From a virus, in IMG/VR virus record IMGVR_UViG_3300006149_000007: 64,000 bases of DNA; one strand, given 5' to 3'. Shown here piece by piece: positions 19,992-57,134 of this stretch. The position numbers were made by a program, and so were the translations under genes. The notes under the pieces were generated by a model that saw only the letters and a program-made list of their open reading frames with translations, was not told the DNA's origin and searched no databases. The first letter of the stretch is position 1; each line of letters begins with the position of its first letter.

Positions 19992-20096
19992 TTATAACGG
20001 ACTAGACAAAGCTAGTCGAAAAGCAAAAAACTCCGTAACTTGCCTGTCCGTTATTCAAATAAATTTACGGAGAGAAAGCATTGCGGAGGTGCGAAT

Positions 20097-42100: not shown

Positions 42101-42896
42101 AGTTTTTCAAGAAATGGGTGGATATATAGTTGAAGGATTTAGTTCTGGAATATCAAATAATATAAATTTTTCTCAATCAAAAGTGCAACAATGGATAGAT
42201 AACACAAGACAGATAATGTCAAATTCTAATCTATTAAGTTTATCACAGCAAAATGGATTAAATGTTGTTTCAGGTTTTAATCAAGGAATAAATGGAGGCG
42301 CTTCAAGTACATATGATACAATAAATTATTATACAGAAAGGATAAAATCCGGTTTTTCAAATATATCAAATTCATTTTATGATATCGGAGAATCAGCAAT
42401 GCAAGGATTTTCCAATGGACTTTCAGATAAGCAGCAAGAAATATACAATAAAGCACAGACAATTTCTAAAAACCTTGCAAAAACAATCAAATCTGCGCTA
42501 AGTATCCATAGCCCGTCAAAGGTCATGTTCGAGTTAGGCGATTATACCATGCAAGGATTTAAAAATGGATTGGAGCATTTGTACCAACCAATATTATCAT
42601 CAGTTCAAGGATTTAGTTCGGATTTGCAAATTGCTCCTGCACCTGATTTAAAAAGTATTTACAGAGATTATCAATATGCAGATATGAATTATTCTATGTC
42701 CTATGAAGGAATAGAAGATTATCAAAGCAATTACCAAAATAGCAACGCAGAAACAAACGCTTTGCTTAGAGAATTGTTGTCGGCGGTTAGAGAAGGAAAA
42801 ATCATACAAGTAGATGGTAAGCAACTCGGAAAAACCGTTCAGGAGCAAGATAAAGCGCATTTTGCAATGACAGGAAAAGGAATGTTTATATATTAG
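39152..42896 (+). CDS. tail tape measure protein, exon 2
   Basis: The frame of ORF 39249..42896 is open back to 39153. It encodes NQPANQLRLLQANFSNLGRTIGNIFLPIVAKVLPYLNA, which is conserved TMP core. Confidence 0.7.
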
Positions 42897-42971: not shown

Positions 42972-43940
42972 ATGAGAATGAAAAAACTTATAGCTTTAAT
43001 AATGTGTAGTATTTTAATGTTAACAGGTTGTAAAAATGATAAAGCCAGCAATAAAAACGTATCGTCAAAGGAAACCAGCCAAAATAATATTGAAAAAGTT
43101 TTTGATGTAGACAAAAAAGGTTTAGAATCAAAAGGATATGAGAATCTTGCTGATATTGCATATGGAAGAATTACTGAAATAGAAGGAAAAATAACTGTAT
43201 TTTTGGCTTATTATCAAAACGAACCAGAAATATCATTTTATTTATTAGCAAAGATAATGCAATTATTAGATAATAATGTGAATTTTCTTATAACATGGGA
43301 CTCGAAAGATTATGATATTAATGAAGAAAAAATGAATAAAGTAGGAAAAGATAGTTTTGAATCTATATTTCCGAATGATTGGCATGATATAATTAAAAAA
43401 TCATTATCTGATGGAAGCAGTATAGAAGATTTTGTTTCTAAAAGTTCAGCAGATATGATTGATAAAGTCGCAGAGAAGTTTGTTTCTAAATATTTAGAAG
43501 ACAATCAGGCAGAGATTATTTCGCAGCAAGAGTATAATACAAATAGTGGTAAATTTTCTATGAAAATAGAAAAACACGAAGAAAAATTAAGTCTTGATAT
43601 TCAAGGAATTGAAAGTACAGAAGAAAAAGCATATTTGATGTTTTCTGCATTTTTGATTGAATTTAATAATATTGGAGATGAATTTAGTGATTGTTCCTGC
43701 ACAATAAGATATAATGATATTTATGTTCTTTACCAGCGCGTTAATGAAAATGTATCAATTATAAGTGGGCTTAACAAAGATGGCTCTTTTACTATGGATA
43801 TGCCAGACTGGGTCGATAAAAATATTAGTGATTTGAATATGGCGGAAGATGAAGTAAATAAATATCTTTTAGATTTAGAAACATATATAAAAAATTTTGG
43901 AAAATTATCAGGTTATAAAATGGGATATTTATTACAATAA
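42972..43940 (+). CDS. lipoprotein
   Basis: Signal peptide with lipobox MLTGC; AT-rich gene. Confidence 0.6.
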   Translation: MRMKKLIALIMCSILMLTGCKNDKASNKNVSSKETSQNNIEKVFDVDKKGLESKGYENLADIAYGRITEIEGKITVFLAYYQNEPEISFYLLAKIMQLLDNNVNFLITWDSKDYDINEEKMNKVGKDSFESIFPNDWHDIIKKSLSDGSSIEDFVSKSSADMIDKVAEKFVSKYLEDNQAEIISQQEYNTNSGKFSMKIEKHEEKLSLDIQGIESTEEKAYLMFSAFLIEFNNIGDEFSDCSCTIRYNDIYVLYQRVNENVSIISGLNKDGSFTMDMPDWVDKNISDLNMAEDEVNKYLLDLETYIKNFGKLSGYKMGYLLQ

Positions 43941-43965
43941 TAAAAAACTTAAACGGAGGATAACA

Positions 43966-44166
43966 ATGAAAAAATACATAATACGATTCTTAGTATTCTT
44001 GGTTGCATTTGCAATAATATTCTTGTCTCTGATAAATGCTAATAATCATCTTGAGAGTGGAGAATCTATAGCTTTTACTTGGATTGCAAGATTATACACT
44101 TATGCGCCATTAATCATTATATTACTTCTGGTGATTATTATTATATTGCTGATAAAGAAAAAGTAA
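43966..44166 (+). CDS. small two-TM membrane protein
   Basis: TM segments FLVFLVAFAIIFLSLI and LIIILLLVIIIILLI; ATG 43966 follows GGAGGA. Confidence 0.5.
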   Translation: MKKYIIRFLVFLVAFAIIFLSLINANNHLESGESIAFTWIARLYTYAPLIIILLLVIIIILLIKKK

Positions 44167-44212
44167 GAAACTTTTAATACGGGCAACCTTAAATTCATAT
44201 AGCGATTTATCA

Positions 44213-44236
44213 AGAGGGTAGAAATGCCCTCTTTTT
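44213..44236 (+). terminator. rho-independent terminator
   Basis: AGAGGG/CCCTCT stem followed by TTTTT. Confidence 0.6.
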
Positions 44237-44270
44237 GTATGCAAAAAATTTATAAAAAATTTACAATTCA

Positions 44271-44310
44271 CATAACTTATCATAAGTTATCATAACTTGT
44301 TATAATTTAT
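44271..44310 (+). promoter_or_regulatory. 10-bp-periodic operator-like repeats overlapping a promoter
   Basis: Four 10-mers: CATAACTTAT, CATAAGTTAT, CATAACTTGT, TATAATTTAT. They contain ATAACTTAT-C-ATAAGTTAT, a perfect palindrome, and TGtTATAAT, a -10 box at 44301-44306. Confidence 0.5.
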
Positions 44311-44413
44311 CACGAGCTATTTTGAAGCGCTTTGGCAGGATTTACAAGGTTATTCTTGTGTGATATGATGACGCAAAATCTACACAATAAAAATCATAAA
44401 GGAGGAAAATGAT

Positions 44414-45067
44414 ATGTTGGTGGAAACGAGAAAATTAAACAAAAGAGAAATCAATGTTGTTACAAGCCTTGATGTGTCTGAAACATTTGAGAAGGAACAT
44501 AGAAATGTATTAGCTGATATTCGCAATATTCAAAGCGAAATTAGTACCGCTGAATTTTCAGCTCTATTCTTTGAAGATGAATACAAGGCTTCTAACGGAA
44601 AGAAGAACCCCATGTATTACATGAACCGAGACGGGTTTACACTTCTTGTAATGGGTTATACCGGAGAAAAAGCCATGAGGTTTAAGTTGGCGTACATCAA
44701 TCAGTTTAACCAGATGGAGGAACTTCTCAAAGGCAAACTAATTGAAAGAGAAAAAGGAATTGTAGTTCGTCAGGCTTTTACAAAGGCATTAAAACAAAGT
44801 GGTGAAAATGAACGTATGCACAACCACGCATATTCGACTTACACTGACTTGATTTATAAAGTGGTATTTGGAAAGAACGCTAAACAGCTAAGAGAAGAAT
44901 ACGGAATAACCAAGCAGGATAATTTAAGGGATTTATTTGCACAGGAAGAGCTTGCAAAGGTAAAGTCTGTTGAAATGGTTGTCAGCGGTCTTATGGATTG
45001 CGGCTGGGGTTATGATGATATAAAAGCATTTGTAATGAATGGAGCGAAAAAGTTGATAGCAGCTTAG
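44414..45067 (+). CDS. Rha-family regulatory protein / antirepressor
   Basis: VVTSLDVSETFEKEHRNVLADIRNI...YYMNRDGFTLLVMGYTGEKAMRFKLAYINQFNQME. Confidence 0.7.
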   Translation: MLVETRKLNKREINVVTSLDVSETFEKEHRNVLADIRNIQSEISTAEFSALFFEDEYKASNGKKNPMYYMNRDGFTLLVMGYTGEKAMRFKLAYINQFNQMEELLKGKLIEREKGIVVRQAFTKALKQSGENERMHNHAYSTYTDLIYKVVFGKNAKQLREEYGITKQDNLRDLFAQEELAKVKSVEMVVSGLMDCGWGYDDIKAFVMNGAKKLIAA

Positions 45068-45099
45068 AATTTCAATACAGTTAATAAACATGGTAATTA

Positions 45100-45158
45100 C
45101 AGCAAAGATAGGGTCGCTCCCGAAAACGTCAAGCCTTAGGCGCTGCTTTGCTGTTTTT
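45100..45158 (+). terminator. terminator-like long hairpin
   Basis: CAGCAAAG...CTTTGCTG followed by TTTTT. Confidence 0.4.
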
Positions 45159-45183
45159 ATAAACAAGGTGAATTTACAGAAAG

Positions 45184-45981
45184 GTGGTAAATACTGTGAA
45201 TGATTTAATTATTAAAAATGTACCGTTTTGCCAAGCTGAATTATTGGCGGTACAGGATAAGGAAACAGGAAAGATTTATGCAGGAATAAACTGCATATTA
45301 AAAGAACTTGGATTTGATGATAGGCAGATTGAGTACAGGAGAAATAAATGGAATGATGATAAAATTATTTCCAAAGGGGTACAAAAATTTTCGTACCCAT
45401 CAGAAAACAGAGGGTATCAAGAGACGTACTGCATAGACATTAAGAAACTTCCTATTGCTCTTGCTAAAATTGAGATTACGCCTAAAATGGAAAAGAAAAT
45501 ACCAGAACTATCTGTTAGATTAGAGAAGTATCAAGATGAATGTGCGGATATTTTGGCAGAAGCTTTTATCCCTATATTCAAGAAGAAATCAGCCATAGAA
45601 GAATTACAGGAAATACAAACCAGAGCTATTCTTGAGGTTAATGAGAAAGTTGGAGAAGTGGAAAACAGGGTAACAAAACTTGAAAACAACATGACAATAA
45701 CCCATGAGCAGATACAGATAATTAAGAATCGAGTAAATGCAAAGATTGTAAAAGATATTTTAGGCGGATATGAAAATAATGCTTATAATGATATACATTT
45801 AAGAGGAAAAGTTTACAGTCGATTCAACAAAGACTACTGTGATTACTTCCGCATAAACGCAAGAGCGAATACATTAGCTTCAAAATTTGATGAAGCTTTG
45901 CACTACATAGATATGTGGGAACCGGACACAAATATAAAGCTGACAATACAATATGCCAATGCTCAAATGAATATTTCTTAG
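45184..45981 (+). CDS. P22 Ant-like antirepressor (N-terminal AR domain plus ORF6C-like C-terminus)
   Basis: VPFCQAELLAVQDKETGKIYAGINCILKELGFDDRQ...LPIALAKIEI...LEKYQDECADILAEAF. Confidence 0.55.
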   Translation: MVNTVNDLIIKNVPFCQAELLAVQDKETGKIYAGINCILKELGFDDRQIEYRRNKWNDDKIISKGVQKFSYPSENRGYQETYCIDIKKLPIALAKIEITPKMEKKIPELSVRLEKYQDECADILAEAFIPIFKKKSAIEELQEIQTRAILEVNEKVGEVENRVTKLENNMTITHEQIQIIKNRVNAKIVKDILGGYENNAYNDIHLRGKVYSRFNKDYCDYFRINARANTLASKFDEALHYIDMWEPDTNIKLTIQYANAQMNIS

Positions 45982-46018
45982 AATATTTTTAGAATCTGGC
46001 GAAAGATGACTATATTGA

Positions 46019-46744
46019 ATGAAGAAATGTTTTAAACATATGCAAGAATTAAAAATTTTTGAGAAAGAAGAGTTTGGAGCAGTAAGAATTGTAATAGTTG
46101 AGGATGAACCGTGGTTTGTGGCGAGTGACATTTGCAAAGCATTGGAAATCCAGAATGTGACGCAGGCGGTTCAGAAGTTAGATGATGATGAACGGTCTAT
46201 GTTCAACATAGGGCGTCAAGGAAGTGCCAATTGCGTGAACGAATACGGATTATACAACCTTGTATTGTCGAGCCGAAAGAAAGAAGCTAGGGAATTTAAG
46301 CGGTGGATAACCCACGAGGTACTCCCATCAATCCGCAAGCATGGAATTTATGCAACCGATAATGTGATTGATGAAATTCTGAACAATCCTGACTTTGGTA
46401 TAGAACTTCTGACAAAATTAAAAGAAGAGCGAAAAGCAAGGGTTGAAGCAGAGAAAAAGAACGCTATCCTTATGCACGTCAATAAGACATACACCATGAC
46501 AGAAATAGCCAAAGAGTTAAATTTAAAATCAGCAACGGAGCTTAATAAAATACTTGCGGAAAAGAAAGTGCAATACAAGGTAAATGATACATGGGTACTA
46601 TACTCTGATTATAGCAATTTGGGTTATGAGGACATCAAACAGGAAGTTCTTGATAATGGAAAAGTTATCTATCATAGAAAAATAACGCAAACAGGAAGAA
46701 AATTTATACTGGGATTGTTTAATAATCAAAAATATGTGAAATAA
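46019..46744 (+). CDS. BRO-N / KilA-C antirepressor
   Basis: FGAVRIVIVEDEPWFVASDICKALEI...EFKRWITHEVLPSIRKHGIY is a Bro-N domain. The C-terminus is a KilAC-like HTH. Confidence 0.75.
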   Translation: MKKCFKHMQELKIFEKEEFGAVRIVIVEDEPWFVASDICKALEIQNVTQAVQKLDDDERSMFNIGRQGSANCVNEYGLYNLVLSSRKKEAREFKRWITHEVLPSIRKHGIYATDNVIDEILNNPDFGIELLTKLKEERKARVEAEKKNAILMHVNKTYTMTEIAKELNLKSATELNKILAEKKVQYKVNDTWVLYSDYSNLGYEDIKQEVLDNGKVIYHRKITQTGRKFILGLFNNQKYVK

Positions 46745-46766
46745 AATTAAAAGATATTGAATATAT

Positions 46767-46796
46767 CGGCGGCATCTAAAATAGATGCTGCTTTTG
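46767..46796 (+). terminator. rho-independent terminator
   Basis: CGGCGGCATCT/AGATGCTGCT stem followed by TTTT. Confidence 0.6.
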
Positions 46797-46860
46797 TTAT
46801 ATAAAACAGAAGCATTTTAGTAAAATTGTAGATTATATTTTTGAAATAGGAGGTATAAGA

Positions 46861-47244
46861 ATGATTCTGGAATACAGGGAAGATAATGCTGACGATTTTA
46901 TATGGCATATGATTGAATCAGACCATATAGCGAAAAGCTGTTTCCACATTGAAGAAGATATGAAAATGTTGTCCGAAAAATCAGGAGACAGCGTATCTGA
47001 CAATTTTCATGAAATACACAACATTGCAAAGAAGATGATGAACAAGGCAGGATATTGTTCATATTTTTACACACATCTTCATGCCACAAACAAAGAAAAA
47101 ATAACGTACATAAAAGAAATTGTAATGATTGTACTGGACAGGAATAAAGGAACTGAAATTCATTTCTTTGATTCAGAATATCCGTTCAGAATTTGCTCTA
47201 AAGACGGAACAATAGTAGAAGAATCAATGCATTTTAAAATTTAA
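46861..47244 (+). CDS. hypothetical protein
   Basis: 127-aa ORF with RBS AGGAGG. Confidence 0.5.
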   Translation: MILEYREDNADDFIWHMIESDHIAKSCFHIEEDMKMLSEKSGDSVSDNFHEIHNIAKKMMNKAGYCSYFYTHLHATNKEKITYIKEIVMIVLDRNKGTEIHFFDSEYPFRICSKDGTIVEESMHFKI

Positions 47245-47246
47245 AC

Positions 47247-47269
47247 TGGCTCCCCGTTTTGAGGAGCCA
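47247..47269. terminator. bidirectional hairpin between convergent genes
   Basis: TGGCTCC/GGAGCCA stem. Confidence 0.45.
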
Positions 47270-47275
47270 TGAGAA

Positions 47276-47467
47276 TTATTCCTTGATTGAGTTAAGTATG
47301 GAACATTGTCTTGGGTGATGACAGCACCCAGTAACACTTGAAAATTCACAGATAAGTCTGCCGTTTTCAAATTTGTTTGGTTCATCTTCCAGCGTGGAAG
47401 TTGATATTTTCTCGAACTCAACAGAATAATTTCTTTTCTGCTTATTACAGAAACCATGATAAACCAT
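47276..47467 (-). CDS. small hypothetical protein
   Basis: 63 aa. Strong minus-strand RBS GAAAGGAGGTG lies 6 nt before the ATG. Confidence 0.45.
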   Translation of the reverse strand: MVYHGFCNKQKRNYSVEFEKISTSTLEDEPNKFENGRLICEFSSVTGCCHHPRQCSILNSIKE

Positions 47468-47543
47468 AGACGCACCTCCTTTCTTTCGTGATACCCTGAT
47501 TATACCACAGATATAGAAGAATGAAATTTTTGTTTTACACCAT

Positions 47544-47572
47544 TCGACAAGATTTCCTTTTTATGGTATAAT
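47544..47572 (+). promoter_or_regulatory. promoter P1 of a repeated promoter family
   Basis: TCGACA, 17-bp spacer, TGgTATAAT. Confidence 0.55.
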
Positions 47573-47599
47573 GTGGAAAACACGAAAGAGGGATAATGA

Positions 47600-48469
47600 A
47601 TGAAAAAACTAATATATAATGAAAATACCAAAGAAATAGATGTTATGGAGCAAAAAAATTGTTCAGAGAAAGAGAAACCGAAAGGATTTAAAGCATGGTT
47701 AAAAAATAATAAGATTTTCTTTGAAATTTTTTCTTTATTTTTCGTTGGAGTTATGAGTATTATATTGTCTGTGGTTGGATTACGAATAAATAAAAAAACT
47801 GCGGAAATATATCAAAAGCAATTAAAAATCGAGGAAGATAATAGAGAACCACTTTTTCAATTAAAGACCGAATTGATTAATGAAAACATTGAAAAAAATC
47901 AAAAAGAATACCGACATATAATAAAAAATGAAGGAGGGAGTATTTCATATGCTACTGCAATGATTAGAAAATATATAGAAGTTGGAATTATATCCATAGA
48001 AGGTAAAGAAATAATTGAACCAATTATTTTTAGAGCTCCAATTTCTGATAGACATTATACAGAAACAAGATTTGGCGTTCAGTATAATGAGTTTGATAAA
48101 AATTTTGTTTTGCATGAAATTGATTGCAAAGAAGATATGCTTACATTTAGTGATGAGTTATCAGGTAGGATTGCATTACTTATAGATGATACTAGGTTCT
48201 ATAGTAGTGGTATACACACATATATAGAAATTGTTTATAATGATTATCAAAACAAGCAAGTTAAAGAAAAATATGAAATAAATAATGTTTATTTTACTAA
48301 AGGCGATAAACAATATTATACTAAAAGCATGTCACCAGAGTATGATGAAGATAATATTATATATTTAGATGAAGTAAATGAAAATAATATGGAATCTATT
48401 GCCAAACAGGCGAAAAAAGAGTTTGACCGACGCTGGAATTTAGAAGAAAATCAAAATATTGAGAAATAA
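47600..48469 (+). CDS. single-pass membrane protein
   Basis: 289 aa with TM segment IFFEIFSLFFVGVMSIILSVVGL; very AT-rich. Confidence 0.55.
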   Translation: MKKLIYNENTKEIDVMEQKNCSEKEKPKGFKAWLKNNKIFFEIFSLFFVGVMSIILSVVGLRINKKTAEIYQKQLKIEEDNREPLFQLKTELINENIEKNQKEYRHIIKNEGGSISYATAMIRKYIEVGIISIEGKEIIEPIIFRAPISDRHYTETRFGVQYNEFDKNFVLHEIDCKEDMLTFSDELSGRIALLIDDTRFYSSGIHTYIEIVYNDYQNKQVKEKYEINNVYFTKGDKQYYTKSMSPEYDEDNIIYLDEVNENNMESIAKQAKKEFDRRWNLEENQNIEK

Positions 48470-48504
48470 AAATATTTATTTTTCAACTTTCTTTCCGGTA
48501 CTAC

Positions 48505-48533
48505 CTGACAAATATTCCCTATCATGGTATAAT
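48505..48533 (+). promoter_or_regulatory. promoter P2 of a repeated promoter family
   Basis: CTGACA, 17-bp spacer, TGgTATAAT. Confidence 0.55.
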
Positions 48534-48556
48534 ACAAAAAAACAAAAGAAAGGGAG

Positions 48557-49036
48557 ATGTACATGGCGTTAATTAAGTGTCCTGAATGTGGAAAGATGAT
48601 ATCCGATATGACAGATAAATGTACTGATTGTGGATATCCTATATATTTAATGAAAAGAACAATAAAAAAATGCCCATTTTGTGGCGGAATAAATTATGGA
48701 TATGATTCAACTTGCAAGAACTGTGGCGGAGAATTAGAATTAGAGCCAGAAGACACAAAATTGAATAGTGTTTCGCAATCATATAGAATTAAACACCAAA
48801 GCGAAAAGATTCAGGAAAATATACGTGTTGTCACAATATACGGAAAAGCAGTAAATAAATACGTAGCGTTACTATTGTGTATATTTTTTGGATATTTTGG
48901 TGCACATAAATTTTATGAAGGAAAAACAATCATGGGATTAATCTATTTATTTACATTAGGATTGTTTGGATTTGGTTGGCTTATAGATATTATAATTATT
49001 GCGACAAATCCGAATCCATATTATGTACAAACATGA
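48557..49036 (+). CDS. double zinc-ribbon plus TM2-domain membrane protein
   Basis: CPECG..CTDCG and CPFCGG..CKNCGG, then LLCIFFGYFGAHKFYEGKTIMGLIYLFTLGLFGFGWLIDIIII, a TM2 domain. Confidence 0.65.
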   Translation: MYMALIKCPECGKMISDMTDKCTDCGYPIYLMKRTIKKCPFCGGINYGYDSTCKNCGGELELEPEDTKLNSVSQSYRIKHQSEKIQENIRVVTIYGKAVNKYVALLLCIFFGYFGAHKFYEGKTIMGLIYLFTLGLFGFGWLIDIIIIATNPNPYYVQT

Positions 49037-49122
49037 ATCCAAAACAGAAAATTGTTATGAGGTAGCAGGATTTTGTTTTTTGCTATCTTTTGGCAAAATT
49101 TTAAATTTTCTCTTGACAATAA

Positions 49123-49151
49123 CTGACAAATTCTTCCTTTTGTGGTATAGT
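49123..49151 (+). promoter_or_regulatory. promoter P3 of a repeated promoter family
   Basis: CTGACA, 17-bp spacer, TGgTATAGT. Confidence 0.55.
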
Positions 49152-49182
49152 TAAGAAAACTACGAAAGGAAGAAATTTTGAT

Positions 49183-51096
49183 ATGGGGCTATTTGGGAAC
49201 TCAAAGCAAAATAAAGAAATTATAAATAACTTTTCATCTCAAATATTGAAACAACAAGAAATTATAGATAACTTAACAAAGGAAAATACTTTACTAAGAA
49301 AAGAATATAATAAAAATAAATCAAAAAAAGAACCTAAAGATAGTATATTCGAATTAAACAATGGGGAATATACCGGAGGTGTTGAAATACCTGCTGGAAT
49401 ATATGATTTGAAAATTTTATTTGGTTATGGAACTATGGAAATAAAAAGTTTTAACCGAATTTTTTTCAGACTATCAGAAGAAACTATTGAAAATTCAACA
49501 GAATACAACTGTGTAAGTATTTACAGAGGAACATATATAAAAATAGAAGGATATGTAAAAGTACAATTTAAACTTAGCGAATATAGTCTTTTAGAAAAAG
49601 AAGTCAAAAATCTCAGAAAGGAAAAGTTTGAATTAATAAAGGATATAGAGTATATAAGGGAATTAAAAAGTTCTGATAAAACAAATTCTAAAAATAAATT
49701 TGTTTTATGTGCAGGCAAATATAGAGGTGATATTGATATTCCTGTTGGCATGTATTCTTTGAAAATAATATCTGGGTACGGATTAGTAGAAATAGACAAA
49801 CCAGATGATATTTGGTTCTGGATGTATTCAGACGAAAAAGAGGCGAAGAAAAATGGTGGTACTAAAACATATAAAAACCTTGAAATTAGTGAAAAAAGTA
49901 TATTAAAAATTGGAGAAAGCGCAACAATAGAATTTTCTGCATCAAAAAAATGTGATTTTTCAGAAGAATATATTGATAGCAAGGAAGAAACTGAAACAAG
50001 ACTGCCTGAAATTAAAGAAGAACTTGAATCAGAAAAATATGATATAGAATATGAATTAAATATTTTAAAAGAAGAATTAAAAAGATTAAACGATGAATGT
50101 ATAAGAAAATATTATCAATTTTCTTCTTATGAATCCTTAACATCTCAAGATTGCAAAAACGAACTTGCTGTATTGAAACAGCAAGAAATCAGAATGAGAA
50201 GAGAAGAAAAAGATATTACCAAGCAAAATGGTGTAAAAATGGAAGCAAAAGATAAAAGAATTGTAAGGCAAATGCTTAGAACATTTAATGCTGAATGTGA
50301 TAATATTATGATGAACATTTCTTTGAAAAATATTGACAGAGCGAGAAATCAGATACAAAAGTCTTTTGAAACTATTAACACTATATATACAAATGGAAAT
50401 TGGCTTAGTCATTCTTTGCTGGAATTGAAATTACAACAAGTTACCTTAATGTACACATATGAATTGAAATATGAGCAAGAAAAAGAAATTCAAAAAGCAA
50501 TCAAAGAACAAATGATTGAAGAAGCAAAGGCAGAAAAAGAGATTGAGCAGCAAAAGAAAAAGATAGAAAAAGATTTACAGCAGCATTTAAGTGAAGTAAA
50601 TCGAATGATGAAGTATATGCAAAAAACGCAGATAGATGTTGAAAAACAGTTATACATGGATAAGATAAAAGAATTGGAAGAAAAGATAAAACTTCTCGAA
50701 GCTGATAAAGAAACAGTATCAGAAAGGCAAGCCAATGCTAAGGCCGGATTTGTTTACATTATATCAAATATAGGTTCTTTTGGAGAAGGTATATATAAAA
50801 TTGGAATGACAAGGCGACTTGAACCTATGGAAAGAATAAGAGAGCTAAGTTCTGCTTCTGTTCCGTTTGAATTTGATGTACATGCTATGATATTTAGCAG
50901 TAATGCGCCAGAACTGGAAACCATTTTACATAAACATTTTTCTGACAGAGCAGTTAATAAAGTAAACCCAAGAAAAGAATTTTTTAGAGTAGATATTGAT
51001 GAAATAGAGAGAGTAGTTAAGGAAAATTATAATGATACTGTGCAGTTTACAAAGATACCAGTAGCGACAGAATACAGACAGTCTATGGATTCTTAA
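49183..51096 (+). CDS. DUF4041-like coiled-coil protein with C-terminal T5orf172 (GIY-YIG-related) domain
   Basis: C-terminus GFVYIISNIGSFGEGIYKIGMTRRLEPMERIRELSSASVPFEFDVHAMIFS...EFFRV. The N-terminus has two G.Y.G..DIP.G.Y beta-repeats. Confidence 0.65.
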   Translation: MGLFGNSKQNKEIINNFSSQILKQQEIIDNLTKENTLLRKEYNKNKSKKEPKDSIFELNNGEYTGGVEIPAGIYDLKILFGYGTMEIKSFNRIFFRLSEETIENSTEYNCVSIYRGTYIKIEGYVKVQFKLSEYSLLEKEVKNLRKEKFELIKDIEYIRELKSSDKTNSKNKFVLCAGKYRGDIDIPVGMYSLKIISGYGLVEIDKPDDIWFWMYSDEKEAKKNGGTKTYKNLEISEKSILKIGESATIEFSASKKCDFSEEYIDSKEETETRLPEIKEELESEKYDIEYELNILKEELKRLNDECIRKYYQFSSYESLTSQDCKNELAVLKQQEIRMRREEKDITKQNGVKMEAKDKRIVRQMLRTFNAECDNIMMNISLKNIDRARNQIQKSFETINTIYTNGNWLSHSLLELKLQQVTLMYTYELKYEQEKEIQKAIKEQMIEEAKAEKEIEQQKKKIEKDLQQHLSEVNRMMKYMQKTQIDVEKQLYMDKIKELEEKIKLLEADKETVSERQANAKAGFVYIISNIGSFGEGIYKIGMTRRLEPMERIRELSSASVPFEFDVHAMIFSSNAPELETILHKHFSDRAVNKVNPRKEFFRVDIDEIERVVKENYNDTVQFTKIPVATEYRQSMDS

Positions 51097-51271
51097 AATG
51101 GAATGTAAAATTTTTAAATTTTCCTCAATAATAAATAACGAAAGGATTAATTTTATTTATGAAAAGACTAATGATTATGTTGCCGATGTGTAATATTCCT
51201 CTTATAACTTATAGAATTGAAGGGTATTGCAAAAATAAAATAATGATAAAAAACTAAATGGAGGATTACTT

Positions 51272-52213
51272 ATGAAACGAAAGAAATTTATTAATTTGCT
51301 AATGTCTTTGTTGTTAATATGTTCTCTGTCTGCATGTTCAAAAAAATCAGAAAATAAACCAGAACAACAAAAAGAAACCGAAAGTCAATCAAAAGAAGAA
51401 ATCAAAAAATCAGAAGATGACATTACTGAGTTTGAAAAGATAAAGGAGTCAATTTTTGAAGAAGCAAGAAAAGAATCAAATTCTGATGAAACTTTATTGT
51501 ATTTGGTGCAATTATTTGAAGAAACTTATTCATTAGTTTCAAAAGTAAATACTTGGGAGGAGTTTATAGAAATAGGAGACGACAAAGGAATATTTACTTA
51601 TGCAATAGCTTGTTTTGTAGAAAAATCAAAAGATGGAACAATATTACATGAAGCAGGAGAAGAAGCTTGGCAGGCAATAGAAGCTTTATATAATAATGAT
51701 GGTTCATACAAAACTCATATAGAAAAAGTAAAATCCATTTGGGAAGAAAGCGGAAATTTTTTATATGAATCGATTTATCGTGAAGGTCAATACAAAGTAG
51801 GAGTTGATATTCCTTCGGGCGAATATGTGATTTTTTCGGGTTATACAAATTCGGGTTATTTTTCACTTACATCAGATTCTAACGGGAACGATATAATAGC
51901 AAATGAAAACTTTGATTATAATTCAATAATAACTATATATGACGGAGAATATATAGAGCTATCGAGAAGCAAAGCGGTTCCTATATCAGAAGTTACAAGC
52001 CTTCCAAAAGATAAATCGGATATGTTTAAAATCGGAGTTCATTTGCCTGCTGGAGAATATAAACTTATAGCCGATGAAGTTGGTGGGTATTATTGTGTAT
52101 ATAATGATAATAGGCAGCAAGACATAGAATCTAATGATAATTTTAGTGGGCAATCTTATGTTACTGTTAAAGACGGTCAATATTTAGTTTTGTCAAGATG
52201 CAGAATAGAGTAA
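51272..52213 (+). CDS. lipoprotein with two G.Y.VG.DIP.GEY repeats
   Basis: Lipobox LSAC. Repeats QYKVGVDIPSGEYVIF and FKIGVHLPAGEYKLI resemble those in the 49183 protein. Confidence 0.6.
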   Translation: MKRKKFINLLMSLLLICSLSACSKKSENKPEQQKETESQSKEEIKKSEDDITEFEKIKESIFEEARKESNSDETLLYLVQLFEETYSLVSKVNTWEEFIEIGDDKGIFTYAIACFVEKSKDGTILHEAGEEAWQAIEALYNNDGSYKTHIEKVKSIWEESGNFLYESIYREGQYKVGVDIPSGEYVIFSGYTNSGYFSLTSDSNGNDIIANENFDYNSIITIYDGEYIELSRSKAVPISEVTSLPKDKSDMFKIGVHLPAGEYKLIADEVGGYYCVYNDNRQQDIESNDNFSGQSYVTVKDGQYLVLSRCRIE

Positions 52214-52248
52214 TGTTAAAATAAAAATATAATTTTTCAAATTTCCTC

Positions 52249-52278
52249 TTGACAAAATGTAGCAACATAATATATAAT
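52249..52278 (+). promoter_or_regulatory. sigma-A-type promoter
   Basis: TTGACA, 18-bp spacer, TATAAT. Confidence 0.5.
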
Positions 52279-52314
52279 TAAATCGTAACCAAAATTTGAA
52301 AGGAGGTTGATAGC

Positions 52315-52494
52315 GTGTCACCCAGAACGGGGCAAAAAATCAAAGACAACCCGAAAGATTTTATGCTTAGAACAAGACTTGATAGCGAAACACTTGAAAA
52401 ATTGGATTATTCTGCTGAAAAGTTTGGCGTAAGTCGGTCAGAGGTTGTCAGAAATGGTATCGAAAGTGAATACCAAAAAGCAAGAGAACAGTAA
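52315..52494 (+). CDS. ribbon-helix-helix protein (copy 1, 59 aa)
   Basis: GTG start after AGGAGG. Reads VSPRTGQKIKDNPKDFMLRTRLDSETLEKLDYSAEKFGVSRSEVVRNGIE. Confidence 0.5.
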   Translation: MSPRTGQKIKDNPKDFMLRTRLDSETLEKLDYSAEKFGVSRSEVVRNGIESEYQKAREQ

Positions 52495-52624
52495 AAGAGC
52501 AATCGGCATAACTTGGCGGTCAGCGATTGCTCAATCCCAACACCCTAAAAAAGTGTCTATTGATATAATACCACTTTTTTTAGGGAATGTCAAAAACATT
52601 TTTTAGAAAGGTGGTATTTTTTTA

Positions 52625-52720
52625 ATGAGCAGCAAAGAAAACAACGAAGAAACTGAAAACATCACACCAGAACCAATCACAACCGAACATCTTGCTCTTG
52701 AGGTTTTGAAAATTTTTTAA
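52625..52720 (+). pseudogene. truncated copy of the 53100 gene
   Basis: MSSKENNEETENITPEPITTEHLALEVLKIF stop. It shares TTEHLALE(I/V)LK with the 53100..53372 product but lacks the TM segment and C-terminus. Confidence 0.4.
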
Positions 52721-52729
52721 AATTAGGGG

Positions 52730-52770
52730 TTGACTTGTGCCCGTACTAATGTTAATATAAATGTACGGGC
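52730..52770 (+). promoter_or_regulatory. promoter with flanking 8-bp inverted repeat
   Basis: TTGACT, 17-bp spacer, TAATAT. GCCCGTAC (52739-46) and GTACGGGC (52763-70) bracket the -10 box. Confidence 0.5.
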
Positions 52771-52787
52771 GAAAGTGAGGTGATAAA

Positions 52788-52967
52788 GTGTCGCCACGTA
52801 CAGGCAGACCAACAGCCAATAAAAAGACAGAACGGTTAGAGATACGTCTTGCACCTGATGAATTAGAACTGATAGAGAAATGTTCTGAAATTCTTGGAAT
52901 TAGTAAAACAGATGTAATAAATAAAGGTGTAAAATTGGTGAAGGCTGAAATTGACAAGCAAAAATAA
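52788..52967 (+). CDS. ribbon-helix-helix protein (copy 2, 59 aa)
   Basis: VSPRTGRPTANKKTERLEIRLAPDELELIEKCSEILGISKTDVINKGV. Confidence 0.5.
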   Translation: MSPRTGRPTANKKTERLEIRLAPDELELIEKCSEILGISKTDVINKGVKLVKAEIDKQK

Positions 52968-53099
52968 GAGTAATCGCTCAACCTACCACAGCATTGCGAT
53001 TACCCTTGTTGGCACCAGAGGTTTCCCACTGATAAATCTAATTATATCAGATATGGAAGCCTCTTTCAAGAACTTTTTTTGAAGGAGGTATTATTTTAA

Positions 53100-53372
53100 A
53101 TGAATGACAATGAAAAGATTACAACCGAGCATCTCGCTCTTGAAATCCTGAAGCAGGAGCAGGAAAAATCAAAGGCGAAGAACGTCGGCATTATCAGCTT
53201 AACCGTAGCAGTAGTCATCATCGCTATCGGAATGGCGCTTATCAACTACCAGAACGACCACGAATGGCGTGCTTTATTCGATTCCTACGACTTTATCTCA
53301 CAAGACGGTGAAGGCTTCAACAACGTTAATTCTGGCACACAAGGCAATCTGGATAATTCAGACGCAGAATAG
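53100..53372 (+). CDS. single-TM small protein
   Basis: 90 aa with TM segment IISLTVAVVIIAIGMALI. Confidence 0.5.
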   Translation: MNDNEKITTEHLALEILKQEQEKSKAKNVGIISLTVAVVIIAIGMALINYQNDHEWRALFDSYDFISQDGEGFNNVNSGTQGNLDNSDAE

Positions 53373-53382
53373 GGGGTGTGGC

Positions 53383-53568
53383 ATGAAAAGAACAGTAAAG
53401 CAGAGAGTTGATGAATACGTCAAGAAACACCCTGAAGTCCATAGTAGCCTTTTGGTTATGGATATGAATGATATAAGGGAACTCGGAAACATGGTTGATG
53501 TTATCAGTACCGCATTTGCTTATGGCTACATGAAGGGCGCAAAGGCGAAGAAAGGCGGTGCAAGATGA
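53383..53568 (+). CDS. hypothetical protein
   Basis: 61 aa from ATG 53383, after GGGGG. Confidence 0.4.
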   Translation: MKRTVKQRVDEYVKKHPEVHSSLLVMDMNDIRELGNMVDVISTAFAYGYMKGAKAKKGGAR

Positions 53569-53672
53569 TAGCTTATAAAGCAGCTTTATTAAAACTTCTT
53601 GACCGCTTGTCAGACAAGTCAATCAAGCGTTTGTATCAGCTTGCAGAGTATCTTTATGTTTATAAAGAGTAG
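53565..53672 (+). CDS. small hypothetical protein (35 aa)
   Basis: ATGA coupling to the upstream gene. Confidence 0.25.
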   Translation: MIAYKAALLKLLDRLSDKSIKRLYQLAEYLYVYKE

Positions 53673-53685
53673 GAGGTGTGAAAAA

Positions 53686-54471
53686 ATGAACGATATGATT
53701 GTAAAGAATGTTGATGTTCTTGGCGATAGCATTATGGCGGCGAAGGATAGCGACGAAAATGTGTATGCAGGAGTAAGCTATTTTTGCAACGCTCTTGGTA
53801 TGAGCAGAGGTCAAAAGAACAGACAAGTCATAAATGTCCAGAAGGACGAAACTTTAAAGAGAGGGTGTATCAAATTAGGTGCAGGGGTACTTGATGAAGG
53901 CAATGAAACAATCGCATTAAGAATTGACTTTATACCTTTATGGCTTGCTAAAATTTCCATTACGGACAAGACAAAGCGAGAAAATCCCGAACTTGCCGAC
54001 AAACTCTTAGAGTACCAGTTAAAGGCAAAGGACATTCTTACGGAAGCATTTATGCCAAAACAAAGTATGCCACAAACAACAGACGGAAAAATAGCCTTGC
54101 TTGCGCAGGGGCATACGGAACTGAAAGCAGAAGTTGACGAAATCAAGGTGGATTTACAGGCTTTGAAACTCGACTTGCCGCTTATGCCGGTAGAAGCTGA
54201 TGAAATTTCAAATCGAATCAAAAAGCGTGGTGTAGAAATTCTCGGCGGTAAATCATCATCGGCATACAATGACCGCAGTATCAGACAGAAATTATATAAT
54301 AACTATTATTTCTACCTGAAACAGAATTTTAATGTCGGCTCGTATAAAGCCATAAAACGGAATAGACGCAATCAGGCGTTAGAAATTATTGAAGAATATA
54401 AGCCACCGTTGTTTCTGAAAGAAATGATAGAAGAATCGAATACGGCGAAGAAAGGCGTTTCTAATGACTGA
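53686..54471 (+). CDS. P22 Ant-like antirepressor (second copy of this architecture)
   Basis: VYAGVSYFCNALGMSRGQ...IPLWLAKISI...LLEYQLKAKDILTEAF. The C-terminus is ORF6C-like (ILGGKSSSAYND). Confidence 0.55.
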   Translation: MNDMIVKNVDVLGDSIMAAKDSDENVYAGVSYFCNALGMSRGQKNRQVINVQKDETLKRGCIKLGAGVLDEGNETIALRIDFIPLWLAKISITDKTKRENPELADKLLEYQLKAKDILTEAFMPKQSMPQTTDGKIALLAQGHTELKAEVDEIKVDLQALKLDLPLMPVEADEISNRIKKRGVEILGGKSSSAYNDRSIRQKLYNNYYFYLKQNFNVGSYKAIKRNRRNQALEIIEEYKPPLFLKEMIEESNTAKKGVSND

Positions 54472-54637
54472 TAAGGTACATGAATATTCAGAAAAGCACA
54501 TCGGGTTTCTTACTGAATGGGAACATGGAGAGCCGGTTGGAAGTTGGATTAACAACGAAGGTTTCCTGTGTATCATTTACGAAGACGGCGCATGGTGGCA
54601 TTACAAGGTAGAAAATGATAAATTGGTATGGTGGTAG
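54464..54637 (+). CDS. small Trp-rich protein (57 aa)
   Basis: Start overlaps the upstream stop. Below the ORF-track cutoff. Confidence 0.3.
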   Translation: MTDKVHEYSEKHIGFLTEWEHGEPVGSWINNEGFLCIIYEDGAWWHYKVENDKLVWW

Positions 54638-54688
54638 ATAACCACTAGAAGCTGACTTAACGGCTTGACGGAGAGAAAGAGGCACATA

Positions 54689-55027
54689 ATGAAAATAAGA
54701 AATTTGACACCCCACGATATTACGGTTTTTGCGGATGATTATAATGAAATGCCTTATATTATCCCTACTGCTGGTATTGTTGCAAGAGTTTCCACTACAC
54801 AAGAAACTGTTGGAAATATTAATGGTATACCGGTACAAAAGGTAAAATATGGTAGTGTGGAAAACTTACCAGAACCACAGGAAGATGTAGTATTTATAGT
54901 ATCCCAAATGGTTTTATCCGCATTAAACGGAAGTCGAACAGATGTATTTGCTCCGGATACAGGGAAAGGAGCTGTACGAGACAAAGAAGGTAAAATTTTA
55001 GGGACCCTTAATTTGATAGTTTTATAA
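54689..55027 (+). CDS. hypothetical protein
   Basis: 112 aa from ATG 54689. Confidence 0.45.
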   Translation: MKIRNLTPHDITVFADDYNEMPYIIPTAGIVARVSTTQETVGNINGIPVQKVKYGSVENLPEPQEDVVFIVSQMVLSALNGSRTDVFAPDTGKGAVRDKEGKILGTLNLIVL

Positions 55028-55072
55028 TAAAATAAGCTGAGCTATCAGCTATACAGGCAGAAAGGGAAAACT

Positions 55073-55237
55073 ATGGTAGCAGTTAAAGTATATCGTTGTG
55101 GTCCTCATATTTTCCGAAATAAAGAAGAACGTAACAGGCATGCGGCAGAGCATGGACAACACGGATATGGAAACTATGTATATTGCACAGTTGACATAAA
55201 AAATATCGGAAAAACGCTATTTTATTATTATAAATAA
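55073..55237 (+). CDS. small hypothetical protein (54 aa)
   Basis: RBS AAAGGGA upstream. Below the ORF-track cutoff. Confidence 0.3.
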   Translation: MVAVKVYRCGPHIFRNKEERNRHAAEHGQHGYGNYVYCTVDIKNIGKTLFYYYK

Positions 55238-55252
55238 GAGGAGGCGTGTGTT

Positions 55253-55456
55253 ATGAAAATTTATATTATAACAGCGGAAACGCTGATGGATAAAGATGAG
55301 CGTGCTGTTGAGTTTACTTTGCTTGGAGCGTATACGAGCTTAAGAAAAGCAAAGAAAAAGCACAAAGAAGCAGAAAAAAAATTTGTGATTGCGAAGCTGA
55401 CAACAGTTAATAGCAGAACAGATTGTTGGGAGCAAATCGGACACTATTACGAATAA
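55253..55456 (+). CDS. hypothetical protein
   Basis: 67-aa ORF with RBS GAGGAGG. Confidence 0.4.
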   Translation: MKIYIITAETLMDKDERAVEFTLLGAYTSLRKAKKKHKEAEKKFVIAKLTTVNSRTDCWEQIGHYYE

Positions 55457-55471
55457 AAGAAAGGAAATGGT

Positions 55472-56227
55472 ATGGCAAGACCACCAAAACAGGGACTTGA
55501 CTACTTTCCTTTTGATACTGATTTTTTTCAGAATAAAAAAATTAAAAAGTTAAAAGCAGAGTATGGTGCAGATGGTATTGCTATCTATATGTACCTGCTC
55601 TGCGAAATATATAAAAACGGGTACTACATCATAGCTGACGAAGATTTTATAGATTCTATGGCTGACGACCTGAGAATGAACGTTAATAAAATAAACCTAG
55701 TTTTGAGATTCTTGCTGGGGCGGTCACTGTTTGACAACACACTTTTCCAGTCGGACACTGTCTTGACTAGCGTATCTGTACAGAGGCGTTATCAGTTCGC
55801 AGTCCAAGAGCGTATAAATGACCATAGTGCAAATATAGAGGATTTCTGGCTGTTAAAAAAATCAGATACAGAAACCCTTGGACAAGTGCACCCATTTTTA
55901 AAAAATTCCGAGGAAAAATTCGCAAAGGAAAGTAAAGAAAATAAAAGTAAATTAAATGAAAGTATATTAGAGCGTAAAGAGGGGAAAACTCTCACGCCCG
56001 AGGAAAAAGAACGGCTAATAAAAGAATATGGTGTTGAGGTAACGGAAGACTACATACGGCGTACCACACAATACCATTGTTGCAGTTATGCCACAATCAG
56101 GAAATGGATAGCGGAGGACAAAGAGAAGGAACAGAGCCGAAAGCCAAAAAAGAATACCTTTAACAATATTCCACAACATGATTATGATTTTGATGAATTG
56201 GAAAGAAAACTATTAAAAAGAAACTAG
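55472..56227 (+). CDS. DUF4373-type (Lin1244-like) replisome-organizer N-terminal domain protein
   Basis: MARPPKQGLDYFPFDTDFFQNKKIKKLKAEYGADGIAIYMYLLCEIYKNGYY. Confidence 0.55.
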   Translation: MARPPKQGLDYFPFDTDFFQNKKIKKLKAEYGADGIAIYMYLLCEIYKNGYYIIADEDFIDSMADDLRMNVNKINLVLRFLLGRSLFDNTLFQSDTVLTSVSVQRRYQFAVQERINDHSANIEDFWLLKKSDTETLGQVHPFLKNSEEKFAKESKENKSKLNESILERKEGKTLTPEEKERLIKEYGVEVTEDYIRRTTQYHCCSYATIRKWIAEDKEKEQSRKPKKNTFNNIPQHDYDFDELERKLLKRN

Positions 56228-56233
56228 ATTTTC

Positions 56234-56262
56234 TTGACATAAAGATTTTATAGTGGTATTAT
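56234..56262 (+). promoter_or_regulatory. sigma-A-type promoter (extended -10) with ~180-nt leader
   Basis: TTGACA, 17-bp spacer, TGgTATTAT. Confidence 0.5.
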
Positions 56263-56441
56263 ACAAATTAATTGAATAAATTCAGATAAATCATGATTAA
56301 TTCATGTGTAAGATACAGTTTTAATTTATTTTTAGTGTTCGGAGATTCGAAACCCTAGCACATCGGCAGACATTTTTGTCTGTTTGGTGAGCTGGGGTTT
56401 TCCTTTTAGAAAAAATTATCAATATCAGGAGGAATAATATT

Positions 56442-57134
56442 ATGAATGAGATTATCGAAACAGCAAACAGGACACCAATTGAGATTGCATTACAGATTGA
56501 TGACGAAGGGTACACTACATCAAGAAAATTGTACTTTTGGTTATACGAAAATGGTACCCATTATGCAAAATGGCTTAAAGAAAACGTGACAGAAAATCCG
56601 TTTGCAGAAGAAAATGAGTTTTCGCCAATCTTGCGAAAACCCCAAAAACAGGGAGGTAGACCGACAGAGGACTACAAAATCACAGCTTCACTTGCAAAAA
56701 GAATTTCTATGGCTGATAAGTCAGAGCGTGGAGAACAAGCAAGAAATTATTTCATAGGTTGCGAACAGGCACTTGTTAGAATTGCAGAAGAAAGACACAA
56801 AACAGAGATGGAAAGAGCCAAAGGAATCGCGGTAAGACAGGCATTAACAAAGGCAATTCAGCAATCAGGCGAAAATGACCGTATGCACGGACATGCTTAT
56901 TCAACATATACAGACGTGATGTATAAATCTATATTTGGAAAAAATGCAAAACAGTTACGAGTAGAATATGGAATTACAAAAAAAGATAATTTAAGAGATA
57001 TTTTTTCTGAAGAGGAATTAAATCGGGTACAAAATGCAGAAATGATGATTAGTTCTCTTATTGGGTATGGTTGGGGTTTTTGTGATATAAAAGATTTCAT
57101 GTTAAATAAGGCAAATAAGATGATTACAGAATAA
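56442..57134 (+). CDS. AntA-type antirepressor with the Rha-paralog C-terminal domain
   Basis: HYAKWLKENVTENPFAEENEF...GGRPTEDYKITASLAKRISMADKSERGEQARNYFI. The C-terminus is about 65% identical to that of the 44414 protein, by eye. Confidence 0.6.
   Translation: MNEIIETANRTPIEIALQIDDEGYTTSRKLYFWLYENGTHYAKWLKENVTENPFAEENEFSPILRKPQKQGGRPTEDYKITASLAKRISMADKSERGEQARNYFIGCEQALVRIAEERHKTEMERAKGIAVRQALTKAIQQSGENDRMHGHAYSTYTDVMYKSIFGKNAKQLRVEYGITKKDNLRDIFSEEELNRVQNAEMMISSLIGYGWGFCDIKDFMLNKANKMITE

Follow-up and report, generated by a model that had tools for sequence, protein, structure and literature searches.

A SNIPE-family nuclease without a transmembrane helix among self-promoted cargo genes in the tail operon of a temperate siphovirus

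We analyzed a 64,000-nucleotide viral sequence (IMG/VR record IMGVR_UViG_3300006149_000007, hereafter the window), which Pfam and PHROG maps revealed to be a temperate siphovirus genome, with attention to four consecutive plus-strand genes (A to D) at 47531-52213. An earlier note on this DNA had described these genes as a candidate prophage defence or exclusion system matching no named defence system. Gene C does belong to a named single-gene family, SNIPE (PD-Lambda-1 in PADLOC), so the defence assignment holds for C, whose family is experimentally characterized as anti-phage, and not for the four genes as one system. Overall, the segment is probably a set of independently acquired, self-promoted moron cassettes in a tail-operon island, including SNIPE, possibly paired with gene B. 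New here are a SNIPE protein that has no transmembrane (TM) helix and carries beta-module adapters, its candidate TM2 partner and a cargo hotspot within the tail operon.

Gene C is a predicted SNIPE nuclease without a TM helix

Gene C and its domains, in amino acids (aa) and nucleotides (nt):
49183..51096, plus strand: gene C, helix-less SNIPE (PD-lambda-1) homologue, 637 aa
49354-49611 and 49705-49971: beta-modules of C (aa 58-143 and aa 175-263)
50269-50394: DUF4041 of C (aa 363-404; PF13250, E = 1.9e-13, 50.5 bits, cut-off 27)
50746-51024: GIY-YIG/T5orf172/MUG113 domain of C (aa 522-614; PF10544, E = 2.4e-18; PF13455, E = 5e-19)

C matched the PADLOC profile for PD-Lambda-1 (PDLC03976) with E = 4.6e-107 over aa 227-635 (nt 49861-51087), which covered profile positions 50-470 of 491, and matched phrog_1847 with E = 2e-123; PF13250 itself is named SNIPE in precomputed Pfam labels. 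The GIY-YIG residues Y525, G541, R544/R545, E599 and N592 were invariant over 36 homologues, and Y538 was conserved in at least 90% of them. Taken together, the PD-Lambda-1 profile, the combination of DUF4041 with T5orf172, the phrog_1847 match and the conserved GIY-YIG residues identify C, by homology, as a SNIPE (PD-lambda-1) family protein with an intact GIY-YIG nuclease domain and no TM helix. The same hidden Markov model (HMM) searches against Pfam and PADLOC, which the earlier note had proposed for all four proteins, matched C to PD-Lambda-1, DUF4041 and T5orf172 and B to TM2, and the four open reading frames (ORFs) and their domains were all present as it had described them. A PDB sequence search with C gave no meaningful match.

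SNIPE, the new name of PD-lambda-1, was characterized only in 2026 and for one E. coli protein only (Saxton et al., Nature 2026; PMC13190303). That protein is a constitutively membrane-localized GIY-YIG nuclease that cuts phage DNA while it is being injected; it is found in association with host entry proteins and the tape-measure protein, and its N-terminal region acts as a variable adapter (PMC13190303). One TM helix is found in 59% of SNIPE homologues, two in 7% and none in 34% (PMC13190303); because of this last group, the helix is typical of the family and not universal. A hydropathy scan of C revealed no TM helix and hence no membrane anchor of the SNIPE type. The question on which C and its relatives bear is how the roughly one-third of SNIPE homologues that are helix-less avoid cutting host DNA.

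The N-terminus of C consists of an MGLFG motif, a coiled coil and the two beta-modules. Among the 120 closest relatives of C, MG[LI]FG occurred in 28 of 63 helix-less and 0 of 57 helix-bearing proteins, 28 being an underestimate for the helix-less group, since start calls were in some cases placed too far 5'. The beta-module motif, G-x-Y-x-(V/G)-G-x-D-I-P-x-G-x-Y, is present in one to four copies and is common in the SNIPE clade of C. SNIPE relatives were frequent in viral contigs, with 561 confirmed stretches in IMG/VR. A likeness of MGLFG to the membrane-binding N-termini of PspA or ESCRT-III was unsupported, with Pfam searches of seven N-termini returning coiled-coil noise only. A separate, helix-bearing subgroup of SNIPE relatives carries an N-terminal FtsK-gamma (PF09397) winged-helix DNA-binding domain (P0093, P0096, P0101, P0103, P0105, P0108, P0111 and P0112).

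C could also be read as a selfish GIY-YIG/T5orf172 homing endonuclease or mobility nuclease located at a recombination boundary, with no role in defence. One report describes T5orf172 nucleases as often lying at exchange boundaries in phage genomes (PMC10448857), and this phage contains three HNH endonucleases, a probable group I intron and a highly mosaic island. However, the match of C is not confined to the nuclease domain but takes in DUF4041, the linker helix and the rest of the PD-lambda-1 architecture; C has a promoter-like site of its own and interrupts no host gene; and the tested member of the SNIPE family gives direct defence (PMC13190303). A homing role is highly improbable on this evidence.

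Composition and promoter-like sites of the A-D block

Features of the block and its borders:
47247..47269: GC-rich hairpin at the left boundary of the A-D block (terminator scan and sequence)
47544..47572, plus strand: promoter-like site P_A (TCGACA, 17-nt spacer, TATAAT with TG extension)
47600..48469, plus strand: gene A, single-pass membrane protein, 289 aa
48505..48533, plus strand: promoter-like site P_B (CTGACA, 17-nt spacer, TATAAT with TG extension)
48557..49036, plus strand: gene B, double zinc ribbon and TM2, 159 aa
49123..49151, plus strand: promoter-like site P_C (CTGACA, 17-nt spacer, TATAGT with TG extension)
51092..51124, plus strand: left junction repeat, imperfect, about 33 nt, AAATTT(T)CCTC core
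51272..52213, plus strand: gene D, lipoprotein, 313 aa
52216..52248, plus strand: right junction repeat, leading directly into the RHH-gene promoter
52249..52494, plus strand: promoter-like site (TTGACA, 18-nt spacer, TATAAT; perfect consensus) and RHH gene

The block is AT-rich relative to the structural genes, as had been claimed: GC content was 27-30% over 47-52 kb versus 36-46% in the head and tail genes. The near-identical promoter-like sites previously noted at 47544, 48505 and 49123 are real, and they share a non-random motif. Their core, GACAA-N13-TGGTATA, has three mismatch-free copies in the 64 kb, solely upstream of A, B and C, and with up to one mismatch it was observed four times versus 0.42 expected, a count reached in 0 of 100 shuffles. 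As morons, A, B and C therefore have promoters of their own at the consensus level only, while D has no such site; deviant base composition and presence or absence among related phages also fit the moron pattern. The fourth copy of the core (one mismatch; 17581-17605) lies in an AT-rich stretch (GC 0.30) upstream of a 214-aa ORF without a Pfam match (17724-18368) and may mark another moron.

Terminators did not follow this pattern, with no plus-strand terminator-like hairpin at 47.6-53.05 kb and the first such site 3' of the block at 53059-53089. Since none separates A, B, C and D, nested read-through transcripts are likelier than the monocistronic expression of A, B and C that had been suggested. 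The hairpin on the left (47247-47269) follows a 127-aa ORF and also stands at the end of a convergent minus-strand gene of 63 aa. This gene (47276-47467) has a strong ribosome-binding site, converges on the island genes and matches no family; its position is taken in a relative, L185, by a different minus-strand gene of 57 aa.

Sequence comparisons indicate separate movement of the cassettes

Around SNIPE relatives we gathered 2.25 Mb of sequence, from 80 genome and 80 viral loci, and searched all ORFs of these 160 loci with HMMs for A, B, D and the beta-modules. Co-occurrence of the four genes, which the earlier note had put forward as a check on its proposal, was not seen: none of the 160 loci contained an A or D homologue, and homologues of A and D were found in contexts without SNIPE. 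Full-length homologues of D (45-50% identity) occurred in L178-L184 between the tape-measure gene, which they directly follow, and the DUF6711/Peptidase_S74 genes; the cargo around them differed and included a methylase plus Vsr, ParD, Spo0A_C and a choline-binding protein, but no SNIPE. One homologue of A, accompanied by a copy of P_A starting at the -35 element, was located between the terminase (terL) and portal genes of L190, and another in the tape-measure/DUF6711 island of L191, both without SNIPE.

The closest SNIPE relative (P0002, in L185; 90% identity) had no A, B or D nearby, and its island reads Rha, AntA, Bro-N, a PF20712 multi-TM protein, SNIPE and two RHH genes. At the DNA level, L185 5852-7882 corresponds to window positions 49097-51124, comprising P_C and SNIPE, with 90.5% identity, and joins directly to the counterpart of window positions 52216-53010, the RHH region, with 91.5% identity. 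Because SNIPE of L185 runs straight into the RHH region, D (approximately 51125-52215) appears as an insertion, and the two junction repeats, the right copy of which belongs to repeat family D12, bracket this cassette. Promoters travel with their genes, namely P_A in L190 and P_C in L185, where P_C is conserved 5' of the true start of the P0002 gene. By these sequence comparisons, A, C and D travel among phages independently of one another.

These patterns bear directly on the proposal that A-D form a single four-component defence or exclusion system, with TM and TM2 effectors, C as sensor or nuclease and D linked by its repeat. The genes are contiguous and co-oriented, the AT-rich block that they form has no internal terminators, their promoters are related, C and D have the beta-module in common, and B is linked to C. 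Yet the combination was not seen outside this one phage. A 90%-identical SNIPE occurs without A, B and D, A and D homologues sit in SNIPE-less phages, cassette boundaries and flanking repeats demonstrate separate acquisition, and many Clostridia proteins of unrelated kinds also contain the shared module. We regard a four-component system as very unlikely.

The 59-aa RHH regulator gene that borders D (52315-52494) followed the variable slot in every relative examined. As a SNIPE-specific partner it was rejected: since the same RHH family also follows the D homologue in a phage without SNIPE, the gene is part of the island backbone.

Gene B is a candidate membrane partner of C

Domains of gene B:
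48572-48727: zinc ribbons of B (aa 6-57; Pfam)
48851-48994: TM2 of B (PF05154; aa 99-146; E = 1.1e-18, 67.6 bits, cut-off 27.9)

The pairing of B with C is the sole pairing with independent support, because the two families are adjacent in other lineages and also occur as fusions. Only three TM2 ORFs were present in the 2.25 Mb around the 160 SNIPE genes, and each directly abuts a same-strand, helix-less SNIPE:
L070, Ruthenibacterium: TM2 gene 60 nt downstream of SNIPE
L072, Faecousia: TM2 gene overlapping the end of the SNIPE gene
L083, Cellulomonadaceae: TM2 gene 20 nt upstream of SNIPE

The SNIPE proteins at these loci are about 430 aa in length, have no TM helix and possess MGLFG-like N-termini. 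A reverse search added a fourth adjacency (L226), and the TM2 partners in L070, L072 and L226 share N-terminal zinc ribbons like those of B. Fusion of TM2 to the SNIPE N-terminus was found in five relatives (P0088, P0089, P0090, P0097 and P0100), among them P0088, which a related phage carries in its syntenic tape-measure/DUF6711 island, with the RHH gene again following it; in P0062 and P0053 a zinc ribbon is fused to SNIPE. Elsewhere, other small membrane or zinc-ribbon proteins are encoded immediately upstream of helix-less SNIPEs, namely a 258-aa multi-TM PF20712 protein, 27 nt upstream, in L185 (5077-5853), a 74-aa zinc-ribbon/glycine-zipper membrane protein in L189 (3753-3977) and a zinc-ribbon and TM protein in L076 (9018-9752). 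In the text and supplements consulted, the SNIPE paper (PMC13190303) does not mention TM2 or zinc ribbons. As an IMG/VR query, B returned zinc-ribbon matches only.

Several observations weigh against this pairing and the wider interpretation to which it belongs. Among 80 B-like TM2 proteins from metagenomes, 79 had no SNIPE neighbour; no TM2 gene lies beside the closest SNIPE relative (L185) or next to SNIPE at the genome loci L008-L010, so B is not obligatory for C; and B has a promoter-like site of its own. Membrane-protein neighbours showed no general excess or clear difference between helix-less and helix-bearing SNIPEs in a crude ORF-based comparison. C itself does not have the TM helix that keeps E. 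coli SNIPE off host DNA, and its membrane localization is a prediction. For the flanking genes, the helix of A has the same positive charge on either side, which leaves the topology of the protein ambiguous, and neither A nor D has homology or a significant fold match to known exclusion proteins.

The first three of these points equally suit a B that is unrelated to C, such as a separate zinc-ribbon/TM2 moron for exclusion or membrane stress, in which case C would reach the membrane through its own MGLFG motif, its beta-modules or a host protein. TM2 families are present in many PHROGs, and MGLFG is specific to helix-less SNIPEs. On the other side, the TM2 genes near SNIPE all directly abut helix-less SNIPEs, in four phylogenetically separate lineages, and a syntenic island contains a TM2-SNIPE fusion. 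We consider an unrelated B a serious possibility, though one we lean away from, and tentatively regard B, from adjacency and fusions, as a possible membrane partner of C, with the case close to balanced.

A proposed mechanism

In the interpretation that we favour, of separate cassettes that include SNIPE, C would be expressed from the prophage through its sigma-A-type extended -10 promoter and, by extension from E. coli SNIPE (PMC13190303), would sit at the cytoplasmic face of the membrane and cut the DNA of superinfecting siphoviruses during injection. The injection site would be recognized through DUF4041, by tape-measure and DNA binding, and through the variable N-terminal adapter, which here would comprise the MGLFG motif, the coiled coil and the two beta-modules. 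Neighbourhoods and fusions suggest that B may supply the membrane anchor or partner that C is missing, in which case B and C would be the split counterpart of the TM2-SNIPE fusions that related phages carry in this island. A and D would act as separate envelope-level exclusion morons, which is speculative.

A more general scheme would be a two-component SNIPE, in which MGLFG-bearing helix-less nucleases are tethered or gated at the membrane by a separately encoded double-zinc-ribbon/TM2 protein and the tape-measure/tail junction is a dedicated hotspot for exchanging the anchors and adapters of this nuclease. Other small zinc-ribbon or multi-TM proteins, such as those in L185, L189 and L076, would then be interchangeable with B and, in the boldest form, the beta-module of D, on the outer face of the membrane, would cooperate at the injection site. 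We judge this scheme unlikely. Relatives at the hotspot do provide a natural series, with a separate adjacent TM2 protein, a fused TM2, a fused zinc ribbon, or another membrane protein upstream of a 90%-identical nuclease. Because this series sits at the same hotspot of related Clostridia phages, an anchor acting in trans is directly testable.

Genes A and D are candidate exclusion morons

In the product of gene A, the N-terminus is conserved (MKKLIYNENTKEIDV), a TM helix lies near aa 41-63 and the C-terminal beta-sandwich domain is variable. This protein has no Pfam, PHROG or PADLOC match. The family is rare, with 23 members among 5.8 billion clusters. An AlphaFold2 (AF2) model (pLDDT 76) consisted of an N-terminal hairpin, a long helix (aa 38-80), the beta-sandwich and a C-terminal helix. 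A Foldseek search of the PDB with this model gave no match at E <= 1e-3, with weak matches to ApaG, arrestin and Spo0M-like beta-sandwiches; against BFVD, A showed weak likeness to uncharacterized viral transmembrane proteins only (TM-scores of approximately 0.25). A PDB sequence search likewise returned no meaningful match. We speculate that A is a candidate envelope-level superinfection-exclusion moron with a fast-evolving beta-sandwich domain.

Gene D encodes a lipoprotein with an LSAC lipobox, a disordered K/E/S spacer, a helical domain (aa 50-158) and two beta-modules:
51779-52009 and 52016-52198: beta-modules of D, Rv1352/Rv1906c-type (aa 170-246 and aa 249-309)

The AF2 model of D (pLDDT 88) reproduced the disordered spacer, the helical domain and both modules. 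D matched NCBIfam NF053833 (Rv1352/Rv1906c domain) in two stretches (E = 1.4e-11, 44.5 bits, cut-off 25), and D homologues contain PF27111, a new Pfam family, often with PG_binding_1, Big_2 or zinc-ribbon domains. A PDB sequence search with D found no match, and Foldseek with its model found none at E <= 1e-3 in the PDB (best E = 1.7e-3, TM-score 0.14), the weak matches being viral-spike and jelly-roll-like. D is, again speculatively, a candidate envelope-level superinfection-exclusion lipoprotein with a spacer and repeat domains. In one metagenome copy of the phage (L005; SRR6833898), the A7 run of D (51340-51346), directly after the lipobox cysteine codon, has an extra A that shifts the reading frame, which may reflect phase variation at the homopolymer or an error of assembly.

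The repeats of C and D are related but distant (BLASTP E = 4e-4 and 2e-3). With both C and D left out of its construction, a SNIPE-module HMM matched D at E = 4.6e-6, and the reverse module HMM gave no match to C. Alignment of the two module sets with hhalign gave a probability of 97%, a value that is inflated because the same motif was used to pick both sets. C itself had no NCBIfam match, and its Rv1352/PF27111 assignment is indirect, through the module HMM and hhalign. Judged by sequence, the modules of C and D are probably homologous; they are predicted to be cytoplasmic in C and extracytoplasmic in D. The earlier note had taken the shared repeat as a link between the two genes; the likeness stands, but the module is widespread in Clostridia envelope proteins (PF27111, NF053833) and ties C to D neither specifically nor functionally.

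A cargo hotspot at the tape-measure/distal-tail junction

Landmarks of the phage genome:
3886-5016: integrase gene
from 23745: terminase gene
from 27046: portal gene
from 29351: major head protein gene
36889-38922 and 39249-42896: tape-measure gene, in two pieces
42972..57134, plus strand: accessory (moron) island, about 14 kb, non-structural (PHROG and Pfam maps)
from 57162: DUF6711/phrog_1194 tail gene
from 57531: Peptidase_S74 tail protein gene, 1415 aa
from 62448: endolysin gene

The placement of A-D inside the tail operon is correct as to position, but the genes lie within a roughly 14-kb accessory island, and their immediate neighbours are antirepressor-like and RHH genes, that is, regulatory and not tail genes. 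This island, which lies between the tape-measure gene on one side and the DUF6711/Peptidase_S74 distal tail genes on the other, contains two lipoproteins, five antirepressor-type genes (Rha, two P22_AR_N/ORF6C, Bro/ANT and AntA), two paralogous RHH genes, a Lin1244_N/DnaD-like gene and A-D. The same slot in related phages (L178-L184, L191 and L277) is filled with different cargo. On these comparisons, this family of Clostridia siphoviruses has a newly recognized cargo hotspot at the tape-measure/distal-tail junction, where more candidate exclusion genes of the kind represented by A and D could be sought. Gut Firmicutes prophages thus carry SNIPE in their own tail operons, beside the tape-measure gene, the product of which is what SNIPE recognizes in other phages.

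The homologues point to a bacterium of the Lachnospiraceae, or of another Clostridia group, as the probable host. Megablast of 40-56 kb of the window against 50,697 GenBank phages returned zero matches, and no relatives were found with the tape-measure protein as an IMG/VR query. Every sampled copy of the phage carries the 14-kb block with 99.97-100% identity; the contigs with an exact match are all the same phage and therefore give no independent context.

An alternative reading of the block at 42972-57134 is as a separate parasitic element lodged in the tail operon, for example a satellite or an integrative island, that carries A-D as its own cargo. Low GC content, its own RHH regulators, antirepressors and a replication-type Lin1244_N/DnaD-like gene would suit such an element. 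However, the block contains no integrase or recombinase, it is present in every sampled copy at the near-complete identity given above, and related phages share a backbone at the same site (RHH, an ORF6C-type antirepressor and, in one, Lin1244_N) with different cargo. Because the backbone is the same and the variable cargo differs among relatives, a conserved hotspot fits better than a mobile element, which we consider improbable.

Comparison with known systems

Compared with SNIPE of E. coli (PMC13190303; screen of Vassallo et al. 2022), C has the DUF4041 domain, linker helices, C-terminal GIY-YIG/T5orf172 domain and catalytic residues, has a variable N-terminal adapter region, and is prophage-borne like many defence genes. 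It differs in having no TM helix and in its N-terminus of MGLFG, coiled coil and two Rv1352/PF27111-type modules, features not among the adapters named in PMC13190303 (FtsB, PilO, PspB, P22 needle, DivIVA, T3SS ATPase and PH domains). It also differs in the zinc-ribbon/TM2 gene immediately upstream, the fusion of relatives to TM2, the Gram-positive host and the location of the gene within a tail operon.

The HK97 gp15 moron, a prophage-expressed small inner-membrane protein that imposes a tail-dependent block on genome injection (Cumby et al. 2012; PMC3594210), is the best analogue, in position and in concept, of gene A and of the entire island. Both are self-promoted insertions of deviant GC content in a tail operon, adjoining the tape-measure gene (PMC3594210). 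The likeness is one of analogy, however: gp15 belongs to the YebO family, whereas A is unrelated in sequence, larger (289 aa), has a beta-sandwich and matches no Pfam family.

D recalls Ltp of Streptococcus phage TP-J34, a prophage lipoprotein that blocks injection via the tape-measure protein (PMC3952083; Bebeacua et al. 2013), in that both have a three-part layout of lipid anchor, flexible spacer and tandem repeat domain. Unlike those of Ltp, the repeats of D are beta-modules and are accompanied by a helical domain, and Ltp is encoded in the lysogeny module and not in the tail operon. No homology to the Ltp repeat domain was found in D, Ltp not being among the Foldseek matches listed, and the parallel is one of analogy, not homology. 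Small lipoproteins are also encoded next to tail or receptor-binding genes in T5 (Llp) and phi80/HK022 (Cor); these proteins block the receptor that the phage itself uses and belong to Gram-negative outer-membrane systems. The only Cor match in the island was a weak, signal-peptide-level PHROG match of the lipoprotein at 42972-43940.

Other features of the phage genome

This second lipoprotein (42972-43940; 322 aa, lipobox LTGC) is unrelated to D, belongs to no family and directly follows the tape-measure gene; next after it comes a small membrane protein gene (43966-44166). The tape-measure gene is divided by a GC-rich structured insert at 38897-39248 (fold z-score of -4.66), within which Rfam group I intron RF00028 matched over the full model at 38897-39115 (32.5 bits, gathering score 50, E = 2e-6), which makes a group I intron probable. 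Among relatives, the gene is split in L182 and unsplit in L181, and L179 has an I-HmuI-like endonuclease gene just upstream of it.

Elsewhere, the phage encodes three HNH endonucleases (6608-7432 on the minus strand, 11944-12804 and 16511-17221) and three DnaD-like or replication-initiator-like proteins (107-997, 20040-21131 and 55472-56227). Together with the five antirepressors, this complement (3 + 3 + 5 genes) is unusually redundant and mosaic. A tRNA gene (19920-19991) is followed directly by a match to the int-alpA RNA RF02996 (40.1 bits, above the gathering score), the two spanning 19920-20070. Several independent assemblies of the phage break at 53279-53306, where L002, L005 and L006 end and L168, L170 and L175 start. 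This point lies just past the terminator-like site at 53059-53089, between paralogous antirepressor and RHH genes, and the recurrence of the break suggests a repeat or strain heterogeneity.

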